In this document: in pieces, positions 1-18,235 of the stretch
Layout of the letters: each line of letters opens with the position of its first letter
Position numbering within the stretch: position 1 is the stretch's first letter
Origin: an uncultured Clostridia bacterium
GTDB lineage: Bacteria > Bacillota > Clostridia > TANB77 > CAG-508
Assembly: GCA_934141445.1 (NCBI GenBank)
Contig: CAKPCF010000004.1
Location: 15,526 to 79,525 of the forward strand
Direction: 5' to 3'
Length of the DNA: 64,000 nucleotides
The notes under the pieces: model-generated
What the model saw: the letters and a program-made list of their open reading frames with translations, nothing else
What the model was told of the DNA's origin: nothing
The model's database searches: none
Position numbers and translations under genes: made by a program

Positions 1-192
1 TTCTATAGTTTTTATTTTAGAATAAACAACACTAGATTTTTTAGAATCTTGCCAAAAATTTTCTGACATGCTTTCTTTTTTTAATTGTTCAAGTTCATTT
101 TGCAGACTTTTCAAGTTAATTGTTTCTTTTAGTTTATCTAATTTTTCATTCAAGCTATTTAGTTCTCTTAAATTATTGTCTAAATCTAGCAT
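1..192 (-). CDS. prfB: Peptide chain release factor 2, N-terminal 64 codons (gene runs off the window start)
   Basis: Hand translation from ATG at 192-190 gives MLDLDNNLRELNSLNEKLDKLKETINLKSLQNELEQLKKESMSENFWQDSKKSSVVYSKIKTIE. A helical N-terminus followed by an E.FW.D motif about 45 residues in is the RF2 N-domain pattern. AAAGGAA lies 7 nt upstream and an in-frame TAA sits just before the ATG. It is absent from the ORF track because the window edge truncates it. Confidence 0.55.
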   Translation of the reverse strand, partial: MLDLDNNLRELNSLNEKLDKLKETINLKSLQNELEQLKKESMSENFWQDSKKSSVVYSKIKTIE

Positions 193-346
193 TTACATAT
201 TCCTTTCATATCAATTTAAACTATTATAATTATAGCTTATTCATCTTTAATAGTCAAATAATTTTATACTATAATATATTTGGTATGTTTTTATAAATAC
301 ATGCTGATTGTTGGTTTATAAAGTTAACATAATTTTATAAATTTTC

Positions 347-375
347 TTGACATTTATTCCCAATGGATTTATAAT
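347..375 (+). promoter_or_regulatory. Sigma-70-type promoter of the 64-aa ORF unit
   Basis: TTGACA (347-352), 17-nt spacer, TATAAT (370-375). Both hexamers match consensus exactly at optimal spacing, about 55 nt upstream of the ATG at 432. Confidence 0.55.
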
Positions 376-431
376 AAATTTATGCGGTATTTTGGTATCG
401 TAAATACATATTTTTTGAGAGGTATTTTGTT

Positions 432-626
432 ATGGCTTCTTTCGTGAAGAACTCGTGCATCAACAACCCCACCGTTACTGTACAGCGGATGACTAATTTC
501 ATGGTCGATCCTAAGCGTGTAGGAAATGCAGTTGCTAACAGCAACTATTACTGGTGGACTTGGCAACAAAAGCATCGTGAATTCTTGAAAAGCGTGGAGA
601 CAGCAAAACGTCAGGTTAACCTGTGA
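432..626 (+). CDS. Hypothetical 64-aa soluble protein (NYYWWTWQQ aromatic patch), foreign composition
   Basis: ORF track. GAGAGG (417-422) lies 9 nt before the ATG. Codons end mostly in G/C (hand count about 45% GC, 88/195). It has its own promoter and terminator. I recognise no family, and a non-coding RNA cannot be excluded. Confidence 0.45.
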   Translation: MASFVKNSCINNPTVTVQRMTNFMVDPKRVGNAVANSNYYWWTWQQKHREFLKSVETAKRQVNL

Positions 627-696
627 GCTGTATTCATAAGTCACAACATCAAAAAAGACTGAGGTTTCCCCCTAAAAACCTTAGTTAATCCTCACG

Positions 697-745
697 CACC
701 GTCAGTGAGCTGTCCAGCCTGGGCAACACTGACGGTGTTTTTATT
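697..745 (+). terminator. Rho-independent terminator of the 64-aa ORF unit
   Basis: An 11-bp perfect stem, CACCGTCAGTG (697-707) with CACTGACGGTG (727-737), is followed by TTTTTATTTTATT. Confidence 0.75.
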
Positions 746-775
746 TTATTCTGAAAAAATAGTAAACTCAATTTT

Positions 776-804
776 TTGACAATTATGTAAAGTCGTGTTA
801 TAAT
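776..804 (+). promoter_or_regulatory. Sigma-70-type promoter (extended -10) of the paralog pair
   Basis: TTGACA (776-781), 17-nt spacer, TGT-TATAAT (796-804). The hexamers match consensus exactly and there is a TGn extension. Confidence 0.6.
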
Positions 805-875
805 ATTGTTTATTCGAAATTATTTTTGATTTTTATGAAAGGGTGGTATTTTTTGACTACTTAGAATCACTTCAT

Positions 876-964
876 GTTCGAATATTCACCACTGCAAGAA
901 TATAATAGTTCTTGTTGCAAATGGAGCATTTGCTCTAAGGAGTAAAACAATGGAAGAAAACATT
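876..964 (+). repeat. Conserved structured leader, copy A (includes RBS and first 5 codons of the 950 gene)
   Basis: 83/89 nt are identical to 1329-1417 at a constant offset of 453 nt. It contains hairpin CAAGAAT/GTTCTTG, hairpin GCAAATG-GAG-CATTTGC, then AAGGAG 8 nt before the ATG. Confidence 0.85.
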
Positions 965-1312
965 GTAGCATGGACATTGCTGAATAGATTTGAGAAAGAC
1001 TATAACTTGATATCTTCTTTTCAGCCTAAATTTGAAACTGTGCAAAACTCTGATGCCTTTCAGAAGTTGCTCGATGAATGTGTCGGCTTTTTTGACTGTA
1101 CCCTTCTAGGTAGAGTAGATAATGGTGTTTTTCCTATTAGCTACAGCCTAATATGTGGAGTTATCGACACAACTTCAGAAATTAGAGAGATTGATAAGGA
1201 AATTCCTTTTTCTCTTGATATTGCACGTGATGCTGTTGTTAATATGCTGTCTGCATTAACGCAAGCTTATCAAAAGGAGCTTGAAATCTTTAAAAGAAAT
1301 AACAATCTTTAA
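950..1312 (+). CDS. Hypothetical 120-aa acidic protein, paralog 1
   Basis: ORF track with an AAGGAG RBS. By eye it is about 40% identical to the 1403 product (shared SSF..F..VQNSD.F..LL..C, FP.S, A.VNM..AL...YQKELE.F). No family recognised. Confidence 0.7.
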   Translation: MEENIVAWTLLNRFEKDYNLISSFQPKFETVQNSDAFQKLLDECVGFFDCTLLGRVDNGVFPISYSLICGVIDTTSEIREIDKEIPFSLDIARDAVVNMLSALTQAYQKELEIFKRNNNL

Positions 1313-1328
1313 AGACTTTACAACCAAA

Positions 1329-1417
1329 GTTCGAATATTCACCACTGCAAGAGTACAATAACTCTTGTTGCAAATGGAGCATTTGCTCTAAGGAGTAAAA
1401 CAATGGAAAAAGACATT
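1329..1417 (+). repeat. Conserved structured leader, copy B
   Basis: See copy A. The four differences upstream of the ATG all fall in the first hairpin (two stem pairs changed with pairing kept, one loop position). Confidence 0.85.
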
Positions 1418-1768
1418 AAGGAAATGTTGAAAACTTTCGAAGCAACCAATAGCTCTATCTCTTCTTTTCACCTTCAGTTCGGCTCTGTGCAAAACTCTGA
1501 TGAGTTTCTAGATTTGCTCATCAAATGTGCAAATTTTCTAGATGACGATGTCAAAAAAGGCATAGATGAAAGCATTTTTCCTGTAAGCAACTGTTTGGTC
1601 TGGGGGTTTAGTGATGTCATCAGTTACCTTATCCATGTAGATATCAATGTATATGAAAATTCTTATCCTCTTGATATCACTAGTGAGGCTATCGTCAACA
1701 TGATGTTTGCTTTGCGTTGTTCCTATCAGAAAGAGCTGGAGGCTTTTAGAAAAGACAACAAAGCTTAA
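1403..1768 (+). CDS. Hypothetical 121-aa acidic protein, paralog 2
   Basis: ORF track with the same AAGGAG RBS context. Paralogous to 950..1312. Confidence 0.7.
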   Translation: MEKDIKEMLKTFEATNSSISSFHLQFGSVQNSDEFLDLLIKCANFLDDDVKKGIDESIFPVSNCLVWGFSDVISYLIHVDINVYENSYPLDITSEAIVNMMFALRCSYQKELEAFRKDNKA

Positions 1769-1808
1769 AAAACTCACATCAATATTTCTTCTTTGTTTAA
1801 ATCCTAGC

Positions 1809-1876
1809 AAAAAGTTGCCAGTTCGTGCAAGATTTAGCTGAAATTGCTAATCATTGCACAGCTGGCAACTTTTTTA
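1809..1876. terminator. Long GC-rich bidirectional hairpin terminator
   Basis: AGTTGCCAG (1813-1821) pairs with CTGGCAACT (1862-1870), with further inner pairing (GTGCAA/TTGCAC). An A-run lies on the left and TTTTTT on the right. It can stop both the plus-strand paralog operon and the converging minus-strand sigma operon. Confidence 0.7.
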
Positions 1877-1950
1877 TTTATAAATCTTAAAACTAACAAA
1901 TTCATCTTCAAGTCATTGTAAAACTAACATTGTAATAATACTATAGCATT

Positions 1951-3054
1951 TTAATTACTATAATACATTGTAGCTCCACCAATAATTTCACCAGTAGTAG
2001 CATCAACAAAATAGTTCCATATTCCTTCTGTATATCTTTTTACAACATCTTTATAATTGTCTTCATATTTTATTGTTACTACCCAAGCATTTCTTATTCT
2101 CTCATCTATTAGATAATATTTTCTTGCTTCACTTGGATAATCTACGGTTTGCATTGGCTTATAAAATTCTTCTTTATTCAAACTTCTTTCATAAGCTTTA
2201 GTATTCATTTTTACAACTTCAAGTGTTGCATCAACAGAATCTATTTTATTGCTTTCTACATTTTCATCTTCCATTAAAGCTATTTTTATAGCCTCTTCTT
2301 TAGTAATTTTTATTTCGTTATTATCAAAAGATTCATTTTCTGTTCTAATATATTCAAATTTATTATCTTTTGCATTTATTTCGATACATATATATTCATA
2401 AGGATTATATGTTTCATCATATTTTTTTAGATATTCAATACTAACATAGTTGCCCTCTTCTTCATCCTTTTCACTATTTTTCTTAGCATCATATGATTTT
2501 ATTTCTGTAATATCATAACCTGTTGTATCAATATCAAATTGTTTTAAATATTTATTTGCAACTTTTTTAGCCTCTTCTTTTGATATTTTTTCATCTTCAT
2601 TTTGTGATTGCGTTTGATTATTCCAAATTTCAAAAAATTCGCCACTAAAACCATCTATAGATATAGAATAGTCATCTTCTGTTTCAAATCTATACATAAT
2701 TTTATCTGATTCTACATCTGCCTTATAGTTATCACTTCCTAGTATGTCGCTATTTAGCCCTGCTTTTTTTAGTTTCTTTATAGCAATTTCTTTTGCCTCT
2801 TCTTCTGATATATTAAATTTTTTATTTTCTTCTGTAATCTCAAAAGCTGGGTTTTCTATTTGTTTAGGTACTTTCCAAATTTTTTCTATTATTGTATTGC
2901 CGGCAAAGGCAACACCACTTATTGAAATTATAGTACACGCAACTAATCCTAATTTTTTAATACTGGTTACTTTGTTTGTTTTTTCATCTTCAGTACTATC
3001 CATTTTTGATATAGCTATTCTGAATTTTAGCTTTTCTTTTATATTGTCATTCAT
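1951..3054 (-). CDS. Membrane-anchored PepSY-repeat protein, probable anti-sigma factor by position
   Basis: ORF track. It has an N-terminal cytoplasmic segment, one TM helix (LGLVACTIISISGVAFA), then three I(S/T)xEEAKxxA PepSY-like repeats. Its start is 1 nt after the stop of the upstream sigma gene. Confidence 0.5.
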   Translation of the reverse strand: MNDNIKEKLKFRIAISKMDSTEDEKTNKVTSIKKLGLVACTIISISGVAFAGNTIIEKIWKVPKQIENPAFEITEENKKFNISEEEAKEIAIKKLKKAGLNSDILGSDNYKADVESDKIMYRFETEDDYSISIDGFSGEFFEIWNNQTQSQNEDEKISKEEAKKVANKYLKQFDIDTTGYDITEIKSYDAKKNSEKDEEEGNYVSIEYLKKYDETYNPYEYICIEINAKDNKFEYIRTENESFDNNEIKITKEEAIKIALMEDENVESNKIDSVDATLEVVKMNTKAYERSLNKEEFYKPMQTVDYPSEARKYYLIDERIRNAWVVTIKYEDNYKDVVKRYTEGIWNYFVDATTGEIIGGATMYYSN

Positions 3055-3055
3055 T

Positions 3056-3589
3056 TTATAGTACCTCCTCTTTTAAATACTTTCTTATCTTTTTTCTGGT
3101 TCTATGTAATTTAGTCTTTATATTAGACTCTGACAATCTTAACTCTTTAGCTATATCTTTAATCGAAATGTTTGAATAATAAAACATATTAAATATTTTT
3201 AACTCATCTGGTTTTATGTTTTTTATTTTATTGCACACCTCTTCGATTTTTTCAATTTCTTCTAAATATGATTCATAATAACTAAAGTCTAATGAATTTT
3301 CTATTTGTTCTAAATCTAGTGATAGTTTTCTTTTCTTAAGTTTTTCTTTTATTAGATTTCTAGTTATCCCTGAAATGTATGCTGATAAGTTTTCGATTTT
3401 GTAACCTTCTTCATTTCTTTTCCATACTACAAAGAAAGTATCTAATAAAATTTCTTCTTTATCTTCATTAGATAGATTGTTATATACAGTGTTTCTTATA
3501 ATTGTATTTACATATGGAGAAAAATCATCTACTATTTTGTCTATGTCTAACTCTTCTCCTTTTACATATTTTTCTATTTTACTTTCCAA
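3056..3589 (-). CDS. ECF-type RNA polymerase sigma-70 family factor
   Basis: 177 aa, with a region-2-like segment (FFVVWKR) and a region-4 HTH (ISIKDIAKELRLSESNIKTKLHRTRKKI). Confidence 0.8.
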   Translation of the reverse strand: MESKIEKYVKGEELDIDKIVDDFSPYVNTIIRNTVYNNLSNEDKEEILLDTFFVVWKRNEEGYKIENLSAYISGITRNLIKEKLKKRKLSLDLEQIENSLDFSYYESYLEEIEKIEEVCNKIKNIKPDELKIFNMFYYSNISIKDIAKELRLSESNIKTKLHRTRKKIRKYLKEEVL

Positions 3590-3658
3590 TTTAGTAACTC
3601 CTTTATAAGATATCTTACACTTGTATAGTATTTAAAACATAAAAAAGGTTACACAATA

Positions 3659-4276
3659 TTATAATAAATTTAATTCTTTAATTGTTTCAATTACACTTGC
3701 TACATTATCTGGTTCAACTTTCTTTGATAAAATTCCTAGCTTATTTCCTGTTACTATATTCTTTTGGTTATCATCTATAAATAAACATTCATTAGCAGTT
3801 AAGTTATATTTTTCTAATAATATTTTATATATTCCTTCATAAGGTTTAACTTGATGTACTTGGTATGATAGTATATATCCATCAACTAATTCAAATAATC
3901 CACTTCTTGCTACGTTTTCTGTCGTATACGAATTTATGTTTGATAATAAATAAACACTATATCCTTTGTTTTTTAGTTCTTTGATTAAATCTAAAATTTC
4001 CGTATTTACAAAAGCATAATTGTTGTAGTTATACCAAAAGTTTTTAATAAGTTCATCATTAGAATGATTTGTTCTATCAGATACAATATCTATTGCCTCT
4101 TCTCTTGATATATATCCTGTATCTATTAGTGCATATTCTAACCATTCTGGTGACTTTATTATATTTTCCATAATAAATTTTTGTTCTTCTTGGCTATCTG
4201 TAAATTTCTTTAAAACCTCTTCTACATTAAAATTTAAAATTACATTTCCTATATCAAATATTACATTTTTAATCAT
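3659..4276 (-). CDS. HAD-superfamily hydrolase (subfamily IA-like)
   Basis: N-terminal VIFDIGNVIL (motif I), LLSN (motif II) and FIDDNQKN (motif III). Confidence 0.75.
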   Translation of the reverse strand: MIKNVIFDIGNVILNFNVEEVLKKFTDSQEEQKFIMENIIKSPEWLEYALIDTGYISREEAIDIVSDRTNHSNDELIKNFWYNYNNYAFVNTEILDLIKELKNKGYSVYLLSNINSYTTENVARSGLFELVDGYILSYQVHQVKPYEGIYKILLEKYNLTANECLFIDDNQKNIVTGNKLGILSKKVEPDNVASVIETIKELNLL

Positions 4277-4320
4277 TTTCTTTCTCCTTTTGATTATTAA
4301 ATTATACCAGTTGTATTATA

Positions 4321-4866
4321 TCATAAGACATATTTGTATAAAAAACACTCTTTATCATGTGAATATATAACACCAATTGCTTGCAAATATGAATATATAA
4401 TTGTACTTCCAACAAACTTCATGCCTCTTCTTTGCAAATCTTTTGAAATAGAATCAGATAATTCATTCGTAGTTTTATCTATTTCATATATTGTTTGCTC
4501 TTTAGTAAATGTTCTTAAATAATTGTAAAAGCTTCCATATTCTTCTTGTATTGCTTTAAATATTTTGCTATTAGTTATAGTAGCTTTTATTTTTAATTTG
4601 TTTCTTATAATTTTCTTATTTTCTAATAGTTCTTGTATCTTTTCTTCATTATAAGAACAAATTTTCTCTATATCAAAATTATCAAACGCAATTCTAAAAT
4701 CATCTCGTTTATTAAGCACGCATTCCCAAGATAGTCCAGCTTGAAATGATTCGAGTATTAACATTTCATATAAATATTTTTCATCAAAATTTTGTTTGCA
4801 CCATTCATTGTCATGATATTCTATATATTTTTTATTCTTCAAATTACACCATTTGCATCTTGTCAT
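4321..4866 (-). CDS. tag: DNA-3-methyladenine glycosylase I
   Basis: 181 aa. CKWC..YHDNEWC zinc-snap N-terminus, LILESFQAGLSW, and typical Tag length. Confidence 0.85.
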   Translation of the reverse strand: MTRCKWCNLKNKKYIEYHDNEWCKQNFDEKYLYEMLILESFQAGLSWECVLNKRDDFRIAFDNFDIEKICSYNEEKIQELLENKKIIRNKLKIKATITNSKIFKAIQEEYGSFYNYLRTFTKEQTIYEIDKTTNELSDSISKDLQRRGMKFVGSTIIYSYLQAIGVIYSHDKECFLYKYVL

Positions 4867-4887
4867 TATTACTACTCCTAAAAGCTA

Positions 4888-5790
4888 TTATTCTTTTATA
4901 AAGTTTAGTATGTCTTCAAAAATTTGTTTGTGTTCAGTTTCATTTAGTAGTTCATGTCTTAAATCTTGATATATTTTATGTTGTGATTTAGTATATCCTA
5001 TTTTATTTAAAAATTTTTCTAATTCATCAAACTTTTTTGTACCTTGAATTACTGGATCTTTTTCTCCTGCAATTAGAAAAATCTTTAATTTTTTATTTTT
5101 CATTTTATATAAATTTGCTTTAAAAGCTCTGTCTAATAGCTTGTATAAGTTAATAAAACCATTCGTTGTAAATATAAAGCCGCATAATTCATCAGAATTA
5201 TAATTTTCAACATTACTATAATTTTTTGAAAGCCATTCGTTATCGTTTGTATATCCTTTATTATAAGATTTAAAAGTTAAATTATTTAAAACTTTGTTTG
5301 CTTTTTTATTTAGACCAAAATATTTAAAGGAATATGCAATTGCAATTGCAAACTTTGTAAATGGATTTTTTGTAGGTGGTCCACACAATATAAGTTTTTC
5401 TATTTCATTATCATATTTTTGTATATAACCTCTTGCAACTAATGTACCCATACTATGACTAAATAAATATACTGGATAATTACTATATTTTTCTTTTATA
5501 TAATTAGTTACATCATGTAAATCATTTACTATGAAATCCGTATTTTCTGTATAAAAGTATCCTAAATCTTCTGTGCTTTTAACACTATTTCCATGACCTC
5601 TATGGTCATTTATTATACAAATATATCCATTGTCTGCTAGATATTCCATAAATTCAAAATATCTTTCTTTATATTCAGACATACCATGTGAAATTTGTAC
5701 AATTCCATTTATTTTATCTTTTGGAATTGCATAAGCTATTTCTATTGGTAATCCATCACTACTAGATTCTATTATTTCTTTTTCTATCAT
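4888..5790 (-). CDS. Alpha/beta hydrolase (lysophospholipase / monoacylglycerol-lipase-like)
   Basis: HGMSEY..RY, DHRGHGNS, and nucleophile elbow SHSMG. Confidence 0.8.
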   Translation of the reverse strand: MIEKEIIESSSDGLPIEIAYAIPKDKINGIVQISHGMSEYKERYFEFMEYLADNGYICIINDHRGHGNSVKSTEDLGYFYTENTDFIVNDLHDVTNYIKEKYSNYPVYLFSHSMGTLVARGYIQKYDNEIEKLILCGPPTKNPFTKFAIAIAYSFKYFGLNKKANKVLNNLTFKSYNKGYTNDNEWLSKNYSNVENYNSDELCGFIFTTNGFINLYKLLDRAFKANLYKMKNKKLKIFLIAGEKDPVIQGTKKFDELEKFLNKIGYTKSQHKIYQDLRHELLNETEHKQIFEDILNFIKE

Positions 5791-5870
5791 ACAACCTCAC
5801 TACAATATTATTTTTATAGAACAGATTATAACATATTCAAAATATTTTTCAACTAATGTCTCATATAAAT

Positions 5871-5907
5871 GCCGAAGAGAGAGTTACAATCGTCCCTCTC
5901 TCTTGGC
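5871..5907 (-). terminator. Hairpin immediately 3' of the 60-aa ORF
   Basis: GCCGAAGAGAGAG (5871-5883) pairs with CTCTCTCTTGGC (5896-5907), about 12 bp with one bulge, starting 7 nt after the stop. The U-tract on the minus strand is weak (AUUUAUAU) and is stronger on the plus strand. Confidence 0.5.
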
Positions 5908-5913
5908 TTTTCT

Positions 5914-6096
5914 TTACCTCACCGTCTTTGCTGCCTCCATCAGTGCCTTGCTCTGCACAATGTACCACCGACCGTTGTCGTAGTAAGTAGTGATGCCAGG
6001 CAGGTTCTGATAAAAGGCTCGCAGTGTGTCGTACGCATCAGACTTATGGACAAAACCGAAGGCGTCTACGAGGATAAAGTTTTTAGTGTCGATCAT
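5914..6096 (-). CDS. Hypothetical 60-aa soluble protein, foreign composition
   Basis: ORF track (MIDTKNFILVDAFGFVHKSDAYDTLRAFYQNLPGITTYYDNGRWYIVQSKALMEAAKTVR). AAAGGAA RBS. Hand count 89/183 = about 49% GC. It has its own promoter and hairpin. No family recognised. Confidence 0.5.
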   Translation of the reverse strand: MIDTKNFILVDAFGFVHKSDAYDTLRAFYQNLPGITTYYDNGRWYIVQSKALMEAAKTVR

Positions 6097-6162
6097 AATG
6101 TTGTCGTTCCTTTCTGTAAAACAGGTTGTCGTTCGAACAGATTTATAATTAAATCTACCATA

Positions 6163-6191
6163 ATTATAGCACTTTTGGAAGATTTTTTCAA
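6163..6191 (-). promoter_or_regulatory. Sigma-70-type promoter (extended -10) of the 60-aa ORF
   Basis: On the minus strand: TTGAAA (6191-6186), 17-nt spacer, TGC-TATAAT (-10 at 6168-6163). Confidence 0.55.
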
Positions 6192-6293
6192 CTGGCTAGT
6201 CTTCATAAGAAAATCTTAATATAATTTTAAGTAATTCTTAAAACTTAATCTTCAATTTAGTTTTATAATGTTAGCAATAAGGAGGAGTATTAA

Positions 6294-7004
6294 ATGAAGA
6301 AAAAGAAGAAAAAAATAAGATGGTTACTTCTAATAATTATCATAATATATATTATTTTTCAAAATGATGCTTTTAATATTTTTTCAGAATATAAAACGAT
6401 AAAAGAAGACAAAAATAAAAATTATGCAGGAATTGGTCAACAAAAAGTAAAAAATCAGGATGGATATTTTACTACCTTTACAACTATTGATGATCATAAA
6501 AAAACATATATTGAATATAAACAAAATAATGCTTCTTGGAGTAATAATTCATACTGGGGCGGAACAATGGAAGAAAACGGCTGTGGAATAACAGCACTTG
6601 CAATTATTTTAAGTGGCTACAATAAAACTCACTCTCCTGAAGATCTTAGACAAAAATATTATCCTGTACTAAAATATGATTCTCTTTCAAAAGAATTATC
6701 TGATACATATAATATTGAAAATTCAGATTTTTATTATAACAATACATATTTTACACAAGAAAAATTGCAAGAACATTTAAAAACTAATAGACCTGTTTTG
6801 ATTTGTGTATGGAGCAAACATTATAGTAATCGTTGGACATCTGCCTCACATTATATGGTTTTACTAGCTACTGATGATAATAATATGGTATATGTTTCAA
6901 ATCCTAATGGTGGAGAAAATGATTTCAAAAGTTCAGGATGGTATAATTTCCAAGAAATAATTCCTTATATTGCTAAAGTTTTATACATAGAAAGTTATAA
7001 TTAA
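6294..7004 (+). CDS. Secreted/anchored papain-like cysteine peptidase (C39-like fold)
   Basis: Lys-rich N-terminus plus TM helix, catalytic-Cys context ENGCGITALAIIL, and His context SASHYMVLL followed by SNPNG. Confidence 0.55.
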   Translation: MKKKKKKIRWLLLIIIIIYIIFQNDAFNIFSEYKTIKEDKNKNYAGIGQQKVKNQDGYFTTFTTIDDHKKTYIEYKQNNASWSNNSYWGGTMEENGCGITALAIILSGYNKTHSPEDLRQKYYPVLKYDSLSKELSDTYNIENSDFYYNNTYFTQEKLQEHLKTNRPVLICVWSKHYSNRWTSASHYMVLLATDDNNMVYVSNPNGGENDFKSSGWYNFQEIIPYIAKVLYIESYN

Positions 7005-7051
7005 AGAGCTACTTCAAAATAGTAGCTCTTTAGTTTAAATATAAATACAAA

Positions 7052-9103
7052 TTATTTTTCCTTAATAATATTTTTACTACAAATATAAGTTACTAAGAAA
7101 TATCCACCATATATTGCTATTATAAATACTGCTGTTACAATTATTGATTGTAATAGCTTTTCATTACCAAAAGCACTTAATATGAAATTGCACAATTTTA
7201 TACCAAATATAGAATGAATAATTGCCACTAGAAGAGGAAACATAAAGAATATTCCTATTTGTCTAAATAATGCTTTATTTATCATTTTTTCATCTACACC
7301 AATTTTTCTTAACATTTTAAACTTTTCTACATTATCACTAGATTCAGATAATTCTTTAAGTGCTAAAATTGCTGCACAAGATATTAAGAAAATAATTCCT
7401 AAATAAAGTCCTATAAATGTTGCCATACCACCTAAACCCAAACTTGCTTCTGCAATATATGTTCTTGTTCTAGCTTCTAATGTAGTACTACTTACATATT
7501 CTTCTTTATCTATTGCCTGTATCTTGGCATCAATTTTCCTTTTTTGTTCAGTGTTATTAGCTTTATAATTAGCAATCATTATTTCGTTTTCTTTTTTCAA
7601 TCCAACAATTGCGTCATCAGGAACAACAAAAAATCCAAAATTTGCATAACTAGCATTCATGCTATAAAAGCCATTTTTACAACTTGAATACTTTGGACTA
7701 TATTCTTTATTATTTATTGTTATTTTTGTTCCTAATTTTAAACCTTCATCTCTTATTTCACTCCATTCTTTATAATTAGAAACTATAATATATTCATCAT
7801 TGTCTAAAGAATATTCTTCCAAGTTAAATATTTTTGCTATTTTATTATAATCGCTTATTCTTATTAAAGTTTCTACACTATCATACATTAAAAATGGATA
7901 TTTTTCTTTAGATATTTCGTAATAGTCTCCTAAAGTATCTCTTACCTTTAAATCACTTTGTACATAAATATTAAATTTTACTATATCTTTAAGATTTTCA
8001 TTTATATCAAATTTTAATTTATCTAAAGTTTCTTCCAAACCAATTTTCGAATCTTTTTTCTCTTGCTCAGAATATTTACTATTATCATCTGGGATATTTG
8101 ATTTTTTAGTGAATTCTATATCAGCTGGTGCCAATGTATTCAAATTGTTAGTCATAGAGTTTTTTAATGATAAAGCACTTGATAATACACATATTGTTAT
8201 AAAAAGCATAAGACATATTACAGTCATAGAAAAAGCCATTGTATTTATCTTGCTTGAAAACTGCCTTAAAGTAAAACTATTTAATCCTTTATAATATGTG
8301 TTTTTCATACTCATAAATATTTTTAGCAATAATCCAGATAAAGACCAAAAAATCAAAAATGTTGATATAGCTCCTATAGCAATAGGAATAAAAATATTAT
8401 TTGCATTTGATAATTTATCAATTCCACCAGTAACTTGATAATATGCATATCCTAAAGCTATACAAGAGGCAATAAATATGATTGTACATAGCCAAGGATT
8501 TTTTAATTTTATTTGTTCTGATTTTTTACTAGAATGTAATAAATCAATCAACTTGCATTTACTGATATTTATTGTATTAAATATCATAACAATAAAATAC
8601 ATAATACCAAAATATATTAAAGTCTTTATACATGCTGTTTTAGAAAATATAAATTGAAACTTTGTTAAATCTGCTTCAAACATATTTGCAACTAATATAC
8701 TCATTAGTTGTGACAATAAAAATCCCACACCTAAGCCAACTACTAATGACATAATTCCTATTATCAGAGTTTCAAAAAATAATATCAATGATATTTTTCT
8801 TTTACTCATTCCAAGTGTTAGATATATGCCAAATTCTTTATTTCTTCTTTTTATTAAAAACCTACTTGCATATATAATTAAAAATGCAAGTATAAATGAT
8901 ACAAACACACTAATATCAGATAGTATATTTGTCATAAGTTTTATTATCTCATATGTAGAAGAGGATACATTCATCATAACTGTTTGATCGTCTATTGCAT
9001 TAAATATATAAAAAATTGCAACACCAAGTATTAGAGTAAAAAAATAGATGGCATAATCTTTTATACTCTTACTTATGTTTTTTAATGACAATTTAAAGAG
9101 CAT
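7052..9103 (-). CDS. BceB-type ABC transporter permease (FtsX-like, 10 TM with a large extracellular domain)
   Basis: 683 aa with two FtsX-type 4-TM bundles flanking an extracellular domain of about 200 aa. It overlaps the upstream ATPase gene. Confidence 0.8.
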   Translation of the reverse strand: MLFKLSLKNISKSIKDYAIYFFTLILGVAIFYIFNAIDDQTVMMNVSSSTYEIIKLMTNILSDISVFVSFILAFLIIYASRFLIKRRNKEFGIYLTLGMSKRKISLILFFETLIIGIMSLVVGLGVGFLLSQLMSILVANMFEADLTKFQFIFSKTACIKTLIYFGIMYFIVMIFNTINISKCKLIDLLHSSKKSEQIKLKNPWLCTIIFIASCIALGYAYYQVTGGIDKLSNANNIFIPIAIGAISTFLIFWSLSGLLLKIFMSMKNTYYKGLNSFTLRQFSSKINTMAFSMTVICLMLFITICVLSSALSLKNSMTNNLNTLAPADIEFTKKSNIPDDNSKYSEQEKKDSKIGLEETLDKLKFDINENLKDIVKFNIYVQSDLKVRDTLGDYYEISKEKYPFLMYDSVETLIRISDYNKIAKIFNLEEYSLDNDEYIIVSNYKEWSEIRDEGLKLGTKITINNKEYSPKYSSCKNGFYSMNASYANFGFFVVPDDAIVGLKKENEIMIANYKANNTEQKRKIDAKIQAIDKEEYVSSTTLEARTRTYIAEASLGLGGMATFIGLYLGIIFLISCAAILALKELSESSDNVEKFKMLRKIGVDEKMINKALFRQIGIFFMFPLLVAIIHSIFGIKLCNFILSAFGNEKLLQSIIVTAVFIIAIYGGYFLVTYICSKNIIKEK

Positions 9104-18206: not shown

Positions 18207-18235
18207 ATTATACCACAGTTTATGTTAACTGTCAA
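18207..18235 (-). promoter_or_regulatory. Sigma-70-type promoter (extended -10) of the 59-aa ORF
   Basis: On the minus strand: TTGACA (18235-18230), 17-nt spacer, TGG-TATAAT (-10 at 18212-18207). Confidence 0.6.

Follow-up and report, generated by a model that had tools for sequence, protein, structure and literature searches.

How does a block of genes whose base composition is unlike that of its host come to sit at one chromosomal site in a gut bacterium, and what are its proteins for? The question is raised by positions 347–1880 of a 64,000-nt stretch of DNA (the window) from an uncultured Clostridia bacterium (GTDB lineage Bacteria; Bacillota; Clostridia; TANB77; CAG-508; assembly GCA_934141445.1, contig CAKPCF010000004.1, positions 15,526–79,525 of the forward strand). 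The block lies between prfB and the gene for an anti-sigma factor and holds two transcription units: unit 1 contains a 64-codon gene, orf64, and unit 2 contains two tandem paralogues, parA and parB. A sequence-only reading of the window had described it as a foreign-composition island with the layout of a toxin or bacteriocin and its immunity genes. Comparison with other strains indicates that the par genes are exchangeable cassettes within a locus that is fixed in its species.

The locus is restricted to one lineage and is fixed between prfB and the extracytoplasmic function (ECF) sigma/anti-sigma operon of one uncultured gut Clostridia species. It was present in 24 of the 24 contigs examined that carry the identical ECF sigma factor (four distinct neighbourhoods), always between prfB and the anti-sigma gene, and every homologue was found at this same site in human-gut metagenome contigs. 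It is also present in the GTDB representative metagenome-assembled genome (MAG) CAKPBB010000003.1, an 'uncultured Clostridia bacterium' from a Hadza sample. The left-hand neighbour was identified as prfB by the PCRF and RF-1 domains of its product and by an SPF tripeptide, read in the open reading frame (ORF) of haplotype L022, which we take to be that of the prfB product. In the sole more distant relative, L023 (an Oscillospiraceae MAG whose anti-sigma protein is 55% identical), the neighbours differ and synteny is lost.

The label of foreign-composition island thus holds for the composition, which is foreign-like, but not for an island that is present in some strains and absent from others, as no empty site was found. 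There was no integrase or transposase among the genes called within ±6 kb, and no convincing att repeats flank the block. A 14-nt direct repeat, TACTATAATAYATT, brackets it at 267–280 and 1956–1969; this is probably a chance occurrence, because only the window haplotype has the left copy. Searches with blastn against PLSDB and INPHARED gave no match to the locus, nor did DNA-pattern and peptide-pattern scans of IMG/VR and JGI metagenomes, and the phage, plasmid, viral and metagenome collections searched yielded no donor.

Cassette exchange is seen in unit 2, which is made up as follows.

776–804, plus strand: promoter P2, an exact TTGACA-17-TATAAT consensus with a TG extension
~811–949, plus strand: unit 2 leader, ~139 nt, with a folding-energy z-score (z) of −2.75
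876–949, plus strand: cassette leader module, copy 1, with a hairpin at 894–901/908–915, a second hairpin at 917–933 and the Shine–Dalgarno (SD) sequence AAGGAG
950–1312, plus strand: parA, class A, 120 aa, isoelectric point (pI) 4.4, predicted acidic four-helix bundle
1329–1402, plus strand: cassette leader module, copy 2, with a hairpin at 1347–1354/1361–1368
1403–1768, plus strand: parB, class B, 121 aa, pI 4.5, predicted acidic four-helix-bundle paralogue
1809–1874, both strands: bidirectional intrinsic terminator, common to unit 2 and the convergent anti-sigma operon

Each haplotype carries one or two par genes. parA and parB occur together in the window haplotype, and likewise in L001–L005 and L025. 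Haplotypes L006–L010 have one class-A-like gene (130 aa; class A′), and L015 has the same type, cut by the contig end; one class-B-like gene (117 aa; class B′) is found in L017–L020, L022, L024, L026 and L027. On the short contig L021, a single leader is followed by a gene near to parB, at 0.045 synonymous substitutions per synonymous site (dS), and then by the terminator. In L016 a gene of a third class, C, stands directly behind a single leader. Between the par classes dS ranges from 1.1 to saturated and the ratio of nonsynonymous to synonymous rates (dN/dS) from 0.14 to 0.4; the adjoining anti-sigma gene has a dS of 0.05–0.15.

The unit 2 leader is 92–95% identical across haplotypes whose coding sequences (CDS) are only 57–72% identical. 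Within the window, the last 74 nt of the leader belong to an 89-nt direct repeat, the two copies of which are 93% identical although they stand before paralogues that are 41% identical. Copy 2 is, within this repeat, identical to the single leader of L021, and the two-gene state looks like a class A cassette inserted, together with its leader, ahead of a B-type locus. L009 (class A′) and L018 (class B′) are 94–100% identical over most segments, with 85% identity in the stretch from promoter P1 of unit 1 to the orf64 start codon and 63% in the par CDS. The one par gene has thus been cleanly replaced by the other, with the start codon and the terminator region as limits. Taken at the level of sequence, these comparisons show that recombination at conserved non-coding blocks has replaced cassettes and stacked them. 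Variation within a class was also observed: class B′ alleles P0011–P0020 have FK, IK, LN or LK at residues 36–37, where parB has LD, and combine RRSH, RCSY and RSSH at residues 102–104 in mosaic fashion, which suggests within-class recombination.

Of the structures in the conserved leader, the hairpin at 894–915 is 100% paired in nine variants, even though an A-U pair has become G-C, with G-U pairs as intermediates. The sample used for covariation comprised 8–9 related variants, and related sequences can beat shuffles, according to the documentation of the tool. The second hairpin (917–933) is unsupported, since the two changes seen in it both break pairs. A leader-encoded 23-aa peptide (upstream ORF MFEYSPLQEYNSSCCKWSICSKE, 874–945) was rejected, since the reading frame lacks a start codon in copy 2, ends prematurely in L015 and loses or shifts its stop in three ways; several changes are moreover non-synonymous, and the same changes keep the hairpin paired. 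An SD-sequestering hairpin at 929–946 is broken by a 1-nt deletion common in other haplotypes and was likewise discarded, as were long-range or inner pairings in the 5′ leader, for which all four allele combinations occur without covariation. Among known repeat architectures, an integron cassette array was rejected because the leader repeat lacks RYYYAAC/GTTRRRY attC cores and no integrase was called nearby. Type III toxin–antitoxin repeats and a diversity-generating retroelement were excluded by the lack of tandem repeats and of a reverse transcriptase.

The sequence-only reading had recognised two acidic paralogues of about 120 aa, and the two proteins are indeed 41% identical (E = 1e-26), with pI values of 4.4–4.5; the par proteins are not hydrophobic. 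An AlphaFold 2 (AF2) model of ParA has four helices, with a mean predicted local distance difference test score (pLDDT) of 91 and a predicted template modelling score of 0.83. It had also assigned none of the three proteins to a family, and profile, sequence and structure searches agree. Orf64, ParA and ParB have no meaningful Pfam, PHROGs, NCBIfam or PADLOC match at E ≤ 1 and no sequence match in the PDB. Foldseek searches of the PDB and BFVD returned only generic or designed helical bundles (E > 0.02). A word-indexed search of 5.8 billion protein clusters found five par and two orf64 clusters only, and a HMMER profile scan, run over 1.84 billion representatives, yielded nothing beyond the same-locus family and three long repetitive proteins, whose matches, consisting of many short stretches, were regarded as spurious.

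By analogy, it is tentatively proposed that the locus is an immunity-like array of exchangeable four-helix-bundle cassettes beside a separate small-protein mRNA with a small RNA (sRNA)-like 3′ end, a reading that is considered possible rather than probable. The bundle proteins would be cytoplasmic, acidic binding or neutralising modules, like orphan immunity proteins, and the par repertoire would have diversified between strains as in the tandem immunity genes of type VII secretion systems (T7SS), esaG and tipC. Each cassette consists of a conserved leader of ~75 nt (hairpin plus SD sequence) and a gene of class A, B or C, and it is in the conserved leader and terminator blocks that homologous recombination lets strains exchange or stack them. 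The leader hairpins probably secure translation and stability of each cistron and would double as recombination handles. Unit 1 would be a separate small-protein gene, and its 3′ domain may target G-rich ribosome-binding sites in the manner of a C-rich-loop sRNA.

Tandem esaG and tipC immunity paralogues are gained, lost and replaced by homologous recombination at conserved blocks (Garrett et al. 2022, PMC9484751). Like esaG (DUF600, Staphylococcus aureus) and tipC (streptococci), the par genes are small, non-identical tandem paralogues of strain-variable copy number with exchange at conserved blocks (PMC9484751). In contrast, the conserved blocks of par are a non-coding leader and a terminator, whereas those of esaG/tipC lie inside genes, and par has no sequence or fold relation to them, occurs in one or two copies only and is found in a single species. 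No DUF600 or TipC domain was matched in the par proteins in Pfam or NCBIfam, and there are no T7SS or LXG toxin genes among those called within ±6 kb.

Several observations weigh against the immunity-like array. Within ±6 kb, none of the genes could be recognised as encoding a toxin, a secretion system or a defence function. The par family is confined to one species, unlike known immunity families, which tend to be widespread; no Pfam immunity family matches even at E ≤ 1, and known immunity proteins are absent among the 50 PDB Foldseek matches listed (all E > 0.06). The high GC content at third codon positions (GC3), 0.29–0.55 in every allele compared with 0.13 in the genome, is left without explanation. 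For the RNA part of the proposal, the covariation comes from few independent sequences, so that this evidence is moderate, and the complementarity of the unit 1 3′ domain to neighbouring leaders is no better than random.

Unit 1, to the left of the cassettes, has the following features.

347–375, plus strand: promoter P1, an exact TTGACA-17-TATAAT consensus
417–422, plus strand: SD sequence of orf64, GAGAGG (GAGGTG in other alleles)
432–626, plus strand: orf64, 64 aa, hydrophilic; its C-terminal helix contains an invariant WWTW motif, and residues 33–36 form a polymorphic patch
~640–660, no strand: approximate recombination breakpoint; between the window haplotype and L022, L024 and L026, the sequence is deeply diverged to its left and near-identical to its right
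657–686, plus strand: hairpin hp1, an 11-bp stem (657–667/676–686) with the 8-nt loop CCCCCUAA at 668–675
696–748, plus strand: unit 1 terminator, with a 12-bp outer stem (696–707/727–738), a 6-bp inner stem (711–716/720–725) and a U-tract

The two units had been predicted to be autonomous and plus-stranded, and each was found to have its own promoter, ORFs and terminator; all the elements then described (promoters, ORFs, hairpin, unit 1 terminator, ~139-nt leader and bidirectional terminator) could be located. Both promoters are exact consensus sequences, as predicted, including the TG extension of the second. Perfect 12/12 TTGACA-17-TATAAT sites number three in the 64 kb on both strands, of which two are P1 and P2; the third lies at 18235 on the minus strand. 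In other haplotypes, P1 keeps the −10 box and the spacing but has TTGACT as its −35 box. Both hexamers of P2 are constant across all haplotypes compared and the TG extension is kept in most, with L015 and L021 having ATGC instead of GTGT before the −10 box. The hairpins and terminators of the block (657–686, 696–748 and 1809–1874) have z of −4.6 to −7.2 relative to shuffled sequences; the bidirectional terminator has 13-nt perfect inverted arms and z of −7.2 on the plus strand and −5.8 on the minus strand.

TTCGAA-containing motifs recur in the 5′ regions of compositionally atypical units, at 813–818, 876–882, 1329–1335 and 6131–6138, reading ATTCGAA at 812–818 and GTTCGAA at the remaining sites. 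There are five GTTCGAA matches in the window against 1.35 expected, and 3 of 100 shuffles reach five. The recurrence could reflect an operator, or nothing.

Recombination has also affected the flanks of the locus. The window haplotype (L001) was compared with L022, L024 and L026. To the left of ~650, sliding identity is 59–73% at ~80–600 and mostly 77–96% further left, for at least 4 kb. This diverged side includes orf64, P1, prfB and the genes for aspartate kinase, YabP, YabQ and DivIC (toward rho), with dS of 0.5–1.0; for prfB, the window differs from other strains by a dS of 0.775 and 0.063 nonsynonymous substitutions per nonsynonymous site (dN). To the right of ~650, as far as 7042 (~6.4 kb), identity is mostly 96–100% (0.85–1.00 sliding) and dS is 0.02–0.15. 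This contrast places a recombination breakpoint inside the locus, at the start of the unit 1 3′ domain, and by sequence comparison the window strain is evidently a recombinant. Furthermore, parA differs from the class A′ genes by a dS of ~0.65, a depth like that of the left flank, and is embedded between segments that are 92–99% identical to the common type; the locus is thus an alternating mosaic of diverged and common-type segments (D-C-D-C). It is old enough to sit on backgrounds separated by a dS of ~0.75.

Three further differences between strains were observed around the locus. Homology to other strains stops at 7042, where the window encodes a 683-aa FtsX-domain protein and the others a 1016-aa RCC1/WD40 protein. 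An alpha/beta-hydrolase gene (300 aa, 4888–5790) corresponds to an indel at 4867–5774 and is absent from L022, L024, L026 and L027, in which both sides align. In L006 and L007, the prfB frame departs from that of the other strains after ~10 codons and stops after 29 codons (MLDLEENLREYFYNFLEEKVFLTAENQTL*; positions 1–133 of L006), which could represent a frameshift, a rearrangement or an assembly chimera.

Mosaicism of this kind bears on a plainer explanation, that the block encodes ordinary lineage-specific cytoplasmic proteins (regulators, for example) and that their variation comes from frequent homologous recombination in the region. The fixed, syntenic position in a housekeeping neighbourhood, dN/dS values below 1 and the recombination mosaic that includes prfB are all in keeping with it. 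It is nevertheless judged rather unlikely, because three deep alternative classes at one site, the change in copy number and the GC3 anomaly would be left unaccounted for.

Selection on orf64 argues that unit 1 encodes a protein. Its length of 64 codons is constant in the first six protein alleles extracted, despite ~35% nucleotide divergence, and in further cluster variants except P0031, for which a start further upstream was called. The sense frame contains no stops and has the lowest ratio of nonsynonymous to synonymous polymorphism (pN/pS) of the six frames, 0.40–0.45; by the Nei–Gojobori (NG86) method, dN/dS is 0.17–0.33 in deep comparisons. Judged from these patterns, orf64 is a real, fast-evolving protein-coding gene under protein-level selection, and a non-coding RNA with a chance ORF was rejected on the grounds of the kept length and the low sense pN/pS. 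A 91-aa antisense ORF at 369–644 (minus strand) overlaps orf64, is open in L006 too and has a pN/pS of ~0.9; it looks close to neutral and probably arises from the codon pattern of the sense strand.

The AF2 model of Orf64 has a pLDDT of 59, with helix 33–63 alone being moderately confident. The protein has a grand average of hydropathy (GRAVY) of −0.55 to −0.61, and its pI is 10.1 in the window allele and 7.9 in the common allele. Relative to other alleles, the window allele has a synonymous difference (pS) of 0.65–0.71 and a dN of 0.33–0.35, roughly 3–15 times the dN of flanking housekeeping genes (0.02–0.13); much of this deep divergence appears to be the background of the left segment. In the common group, residues 33–36 read GDYT, GAYT, GSYV and SAYT in four haplotypes, and variable sites are enriched there (post-hoc Fisher p = 0.008), an enrichment that is a lead rather than a result.

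Could Orf64 be a toxin to which the par proteins confer immunity, as the sequence-only reading had suggested by analogy? In this scenario, Orf64 would be a small cationic, tryptophan-rich toxic or antimicrobial peptide and ParA and ParB its specific immunity proteins. The window allele is basic and has the WWTW helix, the residue 33–36 patch could set specificity, and acidic four-helix bundles are the fold of pediocin-like immunity proteins (PMC1904221). As with the class IIa immunity proteins PedB and EntA-im, the par products are predicted cytoplasmic four-helix bundles of ~100–120 aa encoded near a small peptide gene (PMC1904221), although such a bundle is generic. Yet the par proteins have no match to EntA_Immun or another Pfam immunity family at E ≤ 1, and no class IIa protein is among the 50 Foldseek PDB matches listed. 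Orf64 is hydrophilic, its common allele is nearly neutral, and it lacks a YGNGV motif, a double-glycine leader and a signal peptide; there is no modification gene, dedicated exporter or ATP-binding cassette (ABC) exporter in the locus.

The genetic arrangement also disfavours a pairing of the two units. A strong terminator separates them and orf64 is transcribed on its own. The GAYTN allele of orf64 accompanies class A′ in L009 but class B′ in L026 and L027. Such independent assortment of orf64 alleles and par classes speaks against a cognate toxin/immunity pair, and from the haplotypes unit 1 appears to be independent of unit 2. The toxin- or bacteriocin-plus-immunity layout is thus not supported in the form suggested, and the bacteriocin scenario is regarded as improbable. 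A toxin–antitoxin or other anti-phage defence module is rated lower still. The small, oppositely charged products, the strain-variable content and an atypical composition like that of many defence islands would suit it; against these stand the lack of a PADLOC match at E ≤ 1 (seven alleles), of a recognisable toxin fold and of neighbouring defence genes, the separation of the genes by a terminator and a second promoter, which leaves no co-transcription, and the unlinked alleles.

The predicted unit 1 RNA is ~370 nt long and ends in a structured domain. Hairpin hp1 folds at −12.5 kcal/mol (z = −4.6) and the terminator at −28.3 kcal/mol (z = −6.5), and z is −5.8 for the whole 3′ domain. In eight variants of this domain the loop CCCCCUAA (columns 14–21) and the linker UUAAUCCUC (columns 31–39) are invariant. 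In hp1, where 8 of 11 pairs vary, pairing is kept in 98.9% of cells and one pair is double-compensatory; for the domain as a whole, standard pairs make up 99.1% of pair cells, two pairs are double-compensatory, and all but two of the other changes keep a standard pair. In the terminator, a U-A pair is replaced by C-G in L016, a compensatory change, and L015, L022 and L027 have changes compatible with wobble pairing. The pairing score was matched by 5 of 500 shuffles.

Conservation of the 3′ domain was also seen between L015 and L009, an independent comparison clear of the breakpoint at ~650. Identity is 88% in hp1 and the terminator, 93% in the 3′ part of the leader and 81% in the orf64 CDS, compared with only 65–68% in the unstructured spacers adjoining the structured elements. 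The non-coding RNA elements are thus the part of the locus that is conserved best. The 98% identity of the 3′ untranslated region between the window and L006 was rejected as a sign of extreme conservation, as it mostly reflects the breakpoint, and the claim of conservation therefore rests on the comparisons with L015 and L016.

These features raise the alternative that unit 1 is mainly regulatory, a dual-function sRNA like VR-RNA, VirX or RNAIII, with the par cassettes as functionally unrelated neighbours. Host mRNAs would be bound at G-rich ribosome-binding sites by base-pairing with its C-rich-loop 3′ domain. The consensus promoter, the fold, the invariant loop and linker, the survival of pairing through changes and a 3′ domain better conserved than either the spacers or orf64 all speak for this alternative. 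Clostridial regulatory RNAs that bear an ORF and act through the 3′ end are known: VR-RNA of Clostridium perfringens is 386 nt long and carries the hyp7 ORF, and its 3′ end is the active part (PMC4963840). Unit 1 resembles VR-RNA, VirX and RNAIII in its length, strong promoter, small ORF and structured 3′ end (PMC4963840), but has no sequence or Rfam similarity to them, and orf64 is clearly under selection as a protein.

Similarly, RsaE/RoxS bind G-rich sites through C-rich motifs (PMC6158497, PMC5419742), and the hairpin loop of unit 1, which an intrinsic terminator follows, displays an unpaired CCCCC that is complementary to G-rich SD sequences. Unlike RsaE/RoxS, it has a single C-rich loop, placed in an mRNA 3′ untranslated region, and does not match the RsaE model. 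Of seven GGGGG runs in the window, five serve host genes as SD sequences, and SD sequences of the UUAGGGGG type are present at uvrA (26485) and at a sugar-transferase gene (55140). The targets are, however, guesses, since matches to the complement of the loop barely exceed chance (4 against 1.0 expected, the loop's own site included). Targeting of the adjacent leaders by the 3′ domain was rejected because duplex energies were no better than with shuffled targets. An Rfam cmscan of 1–8000 at E ≤ 1 gave two sub-threshold matches alone, both on the terminator region 1810–1912, and a search for tRNA and tmRNA found none. A plain mRNA 3′ end also looks like a hairpin and terminator, and a mainly regulatory unit 1 is considered unlikely.

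Composition is what first set the block apart, and the composition jump claimed for it appears in sliding windows as a clear step. In 200-nt windows, GC content is 0.195–0.225 at 1–400, 0.41–0.43 at 401–700, 0.31–0.37 from 701 to ~1900 and 0.215–0.30 in the right flank. In 500-nt windows, 501–2000 (0.326–0.364) is the peak of the 64 kb, with values elsewhere of at most 0.318. The anomaly is strongest at synonymous sites: GC3 is 0.13 ± 0.02 in host ORFs (maximum 0.17; 37 ORFs of at least 250 aa) and 0.29–0.55 in the block genes, being 0.55 in orf64 and 0.29–0.40 in the two par paralogues. The earlier hand count of about 45% GC for orf64 agrees with its GC at codon positions 1, 2 and 3 of 0.44, 0.38 and 0.55, or ~46% overall. 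A second small GC-rich patch, at 5860–6110 (GC up to 0.475), contains a 60-aa ORF at 5914–6096 on the minus strand with its own SD sequence and a terminator-like hairpin; the ORF is 96–97% conserved in other strains, and the patch has no Pfam, PHROG or Rfam match.

Atypical composition invites the explanation that the block is a mobile-element remnant, moron-like cargo for anti-defence or superinfection exclusion that came from a phage or an integrative and conjugative element (ICE) and is now drifting. Morons are autonomous promoter-gene-terminator units with a composition unlike that of their surroundings. The block units share both properties, each with its own consensus promoter and terminator, and a GC3 of 2–4 times the host value and small acidic orphan proteins also speak for such cargo. 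Unlike a prophage moron, the block lies outside any prophage, is fixed in the species and has no viral relatives; no phage, plasmid or ICE genes are nearby, and no DNA or protein match was found in INPHARED, PLSDB, IMG/VR or BFVD. The locus is fixed in all strains examined and kept across a flank divergence of dS ~0.75, and all block ORFs are under purifying selection. A drifting remnant is regarded as improbable.

A bolder variant of the immunity-like array takes in the GC3 anomaly as well. In this speculative and rather improbable scenario, the locus would be an undescribed strain-discrimination or protection system private to one gut Clostridia lineage, combining exchangeable four-helix-bundle cassettes for immunity or specificity, each behind a structured handle RNA, with a new dual-function RNA that encodes the 64-aa protein and has a regulatory C-rich-loop 3′ domain. 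Its GC3 of three to four times the host value would be kept by selection on the mRNA or by repeated import from an unsampled donor pool.

For metagenomics, the locus has a practical side: it breaks assemblies, many allele contigs being 0.6–2 kb long, and it could be used as a strain marker. It also provides a natural case of foreign synonymous composition (GC3 of 0.3–0.55 compared with 0.13) in fixed genes under purifying selection, and fixed high-GC3 genes are hard to square with simple amelioration. If the immunity-like array of exchangeable cassettes is correct, the protein family would be new, as would this leader-RNA architecture for strain-variable cassette loci, both in a gut lineage that has been seen in metagenomes only. 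It would then also mean that conserved non-coding RNA modules, rather than intragenic blocks, can serve as handles for the recombination of whole genes.

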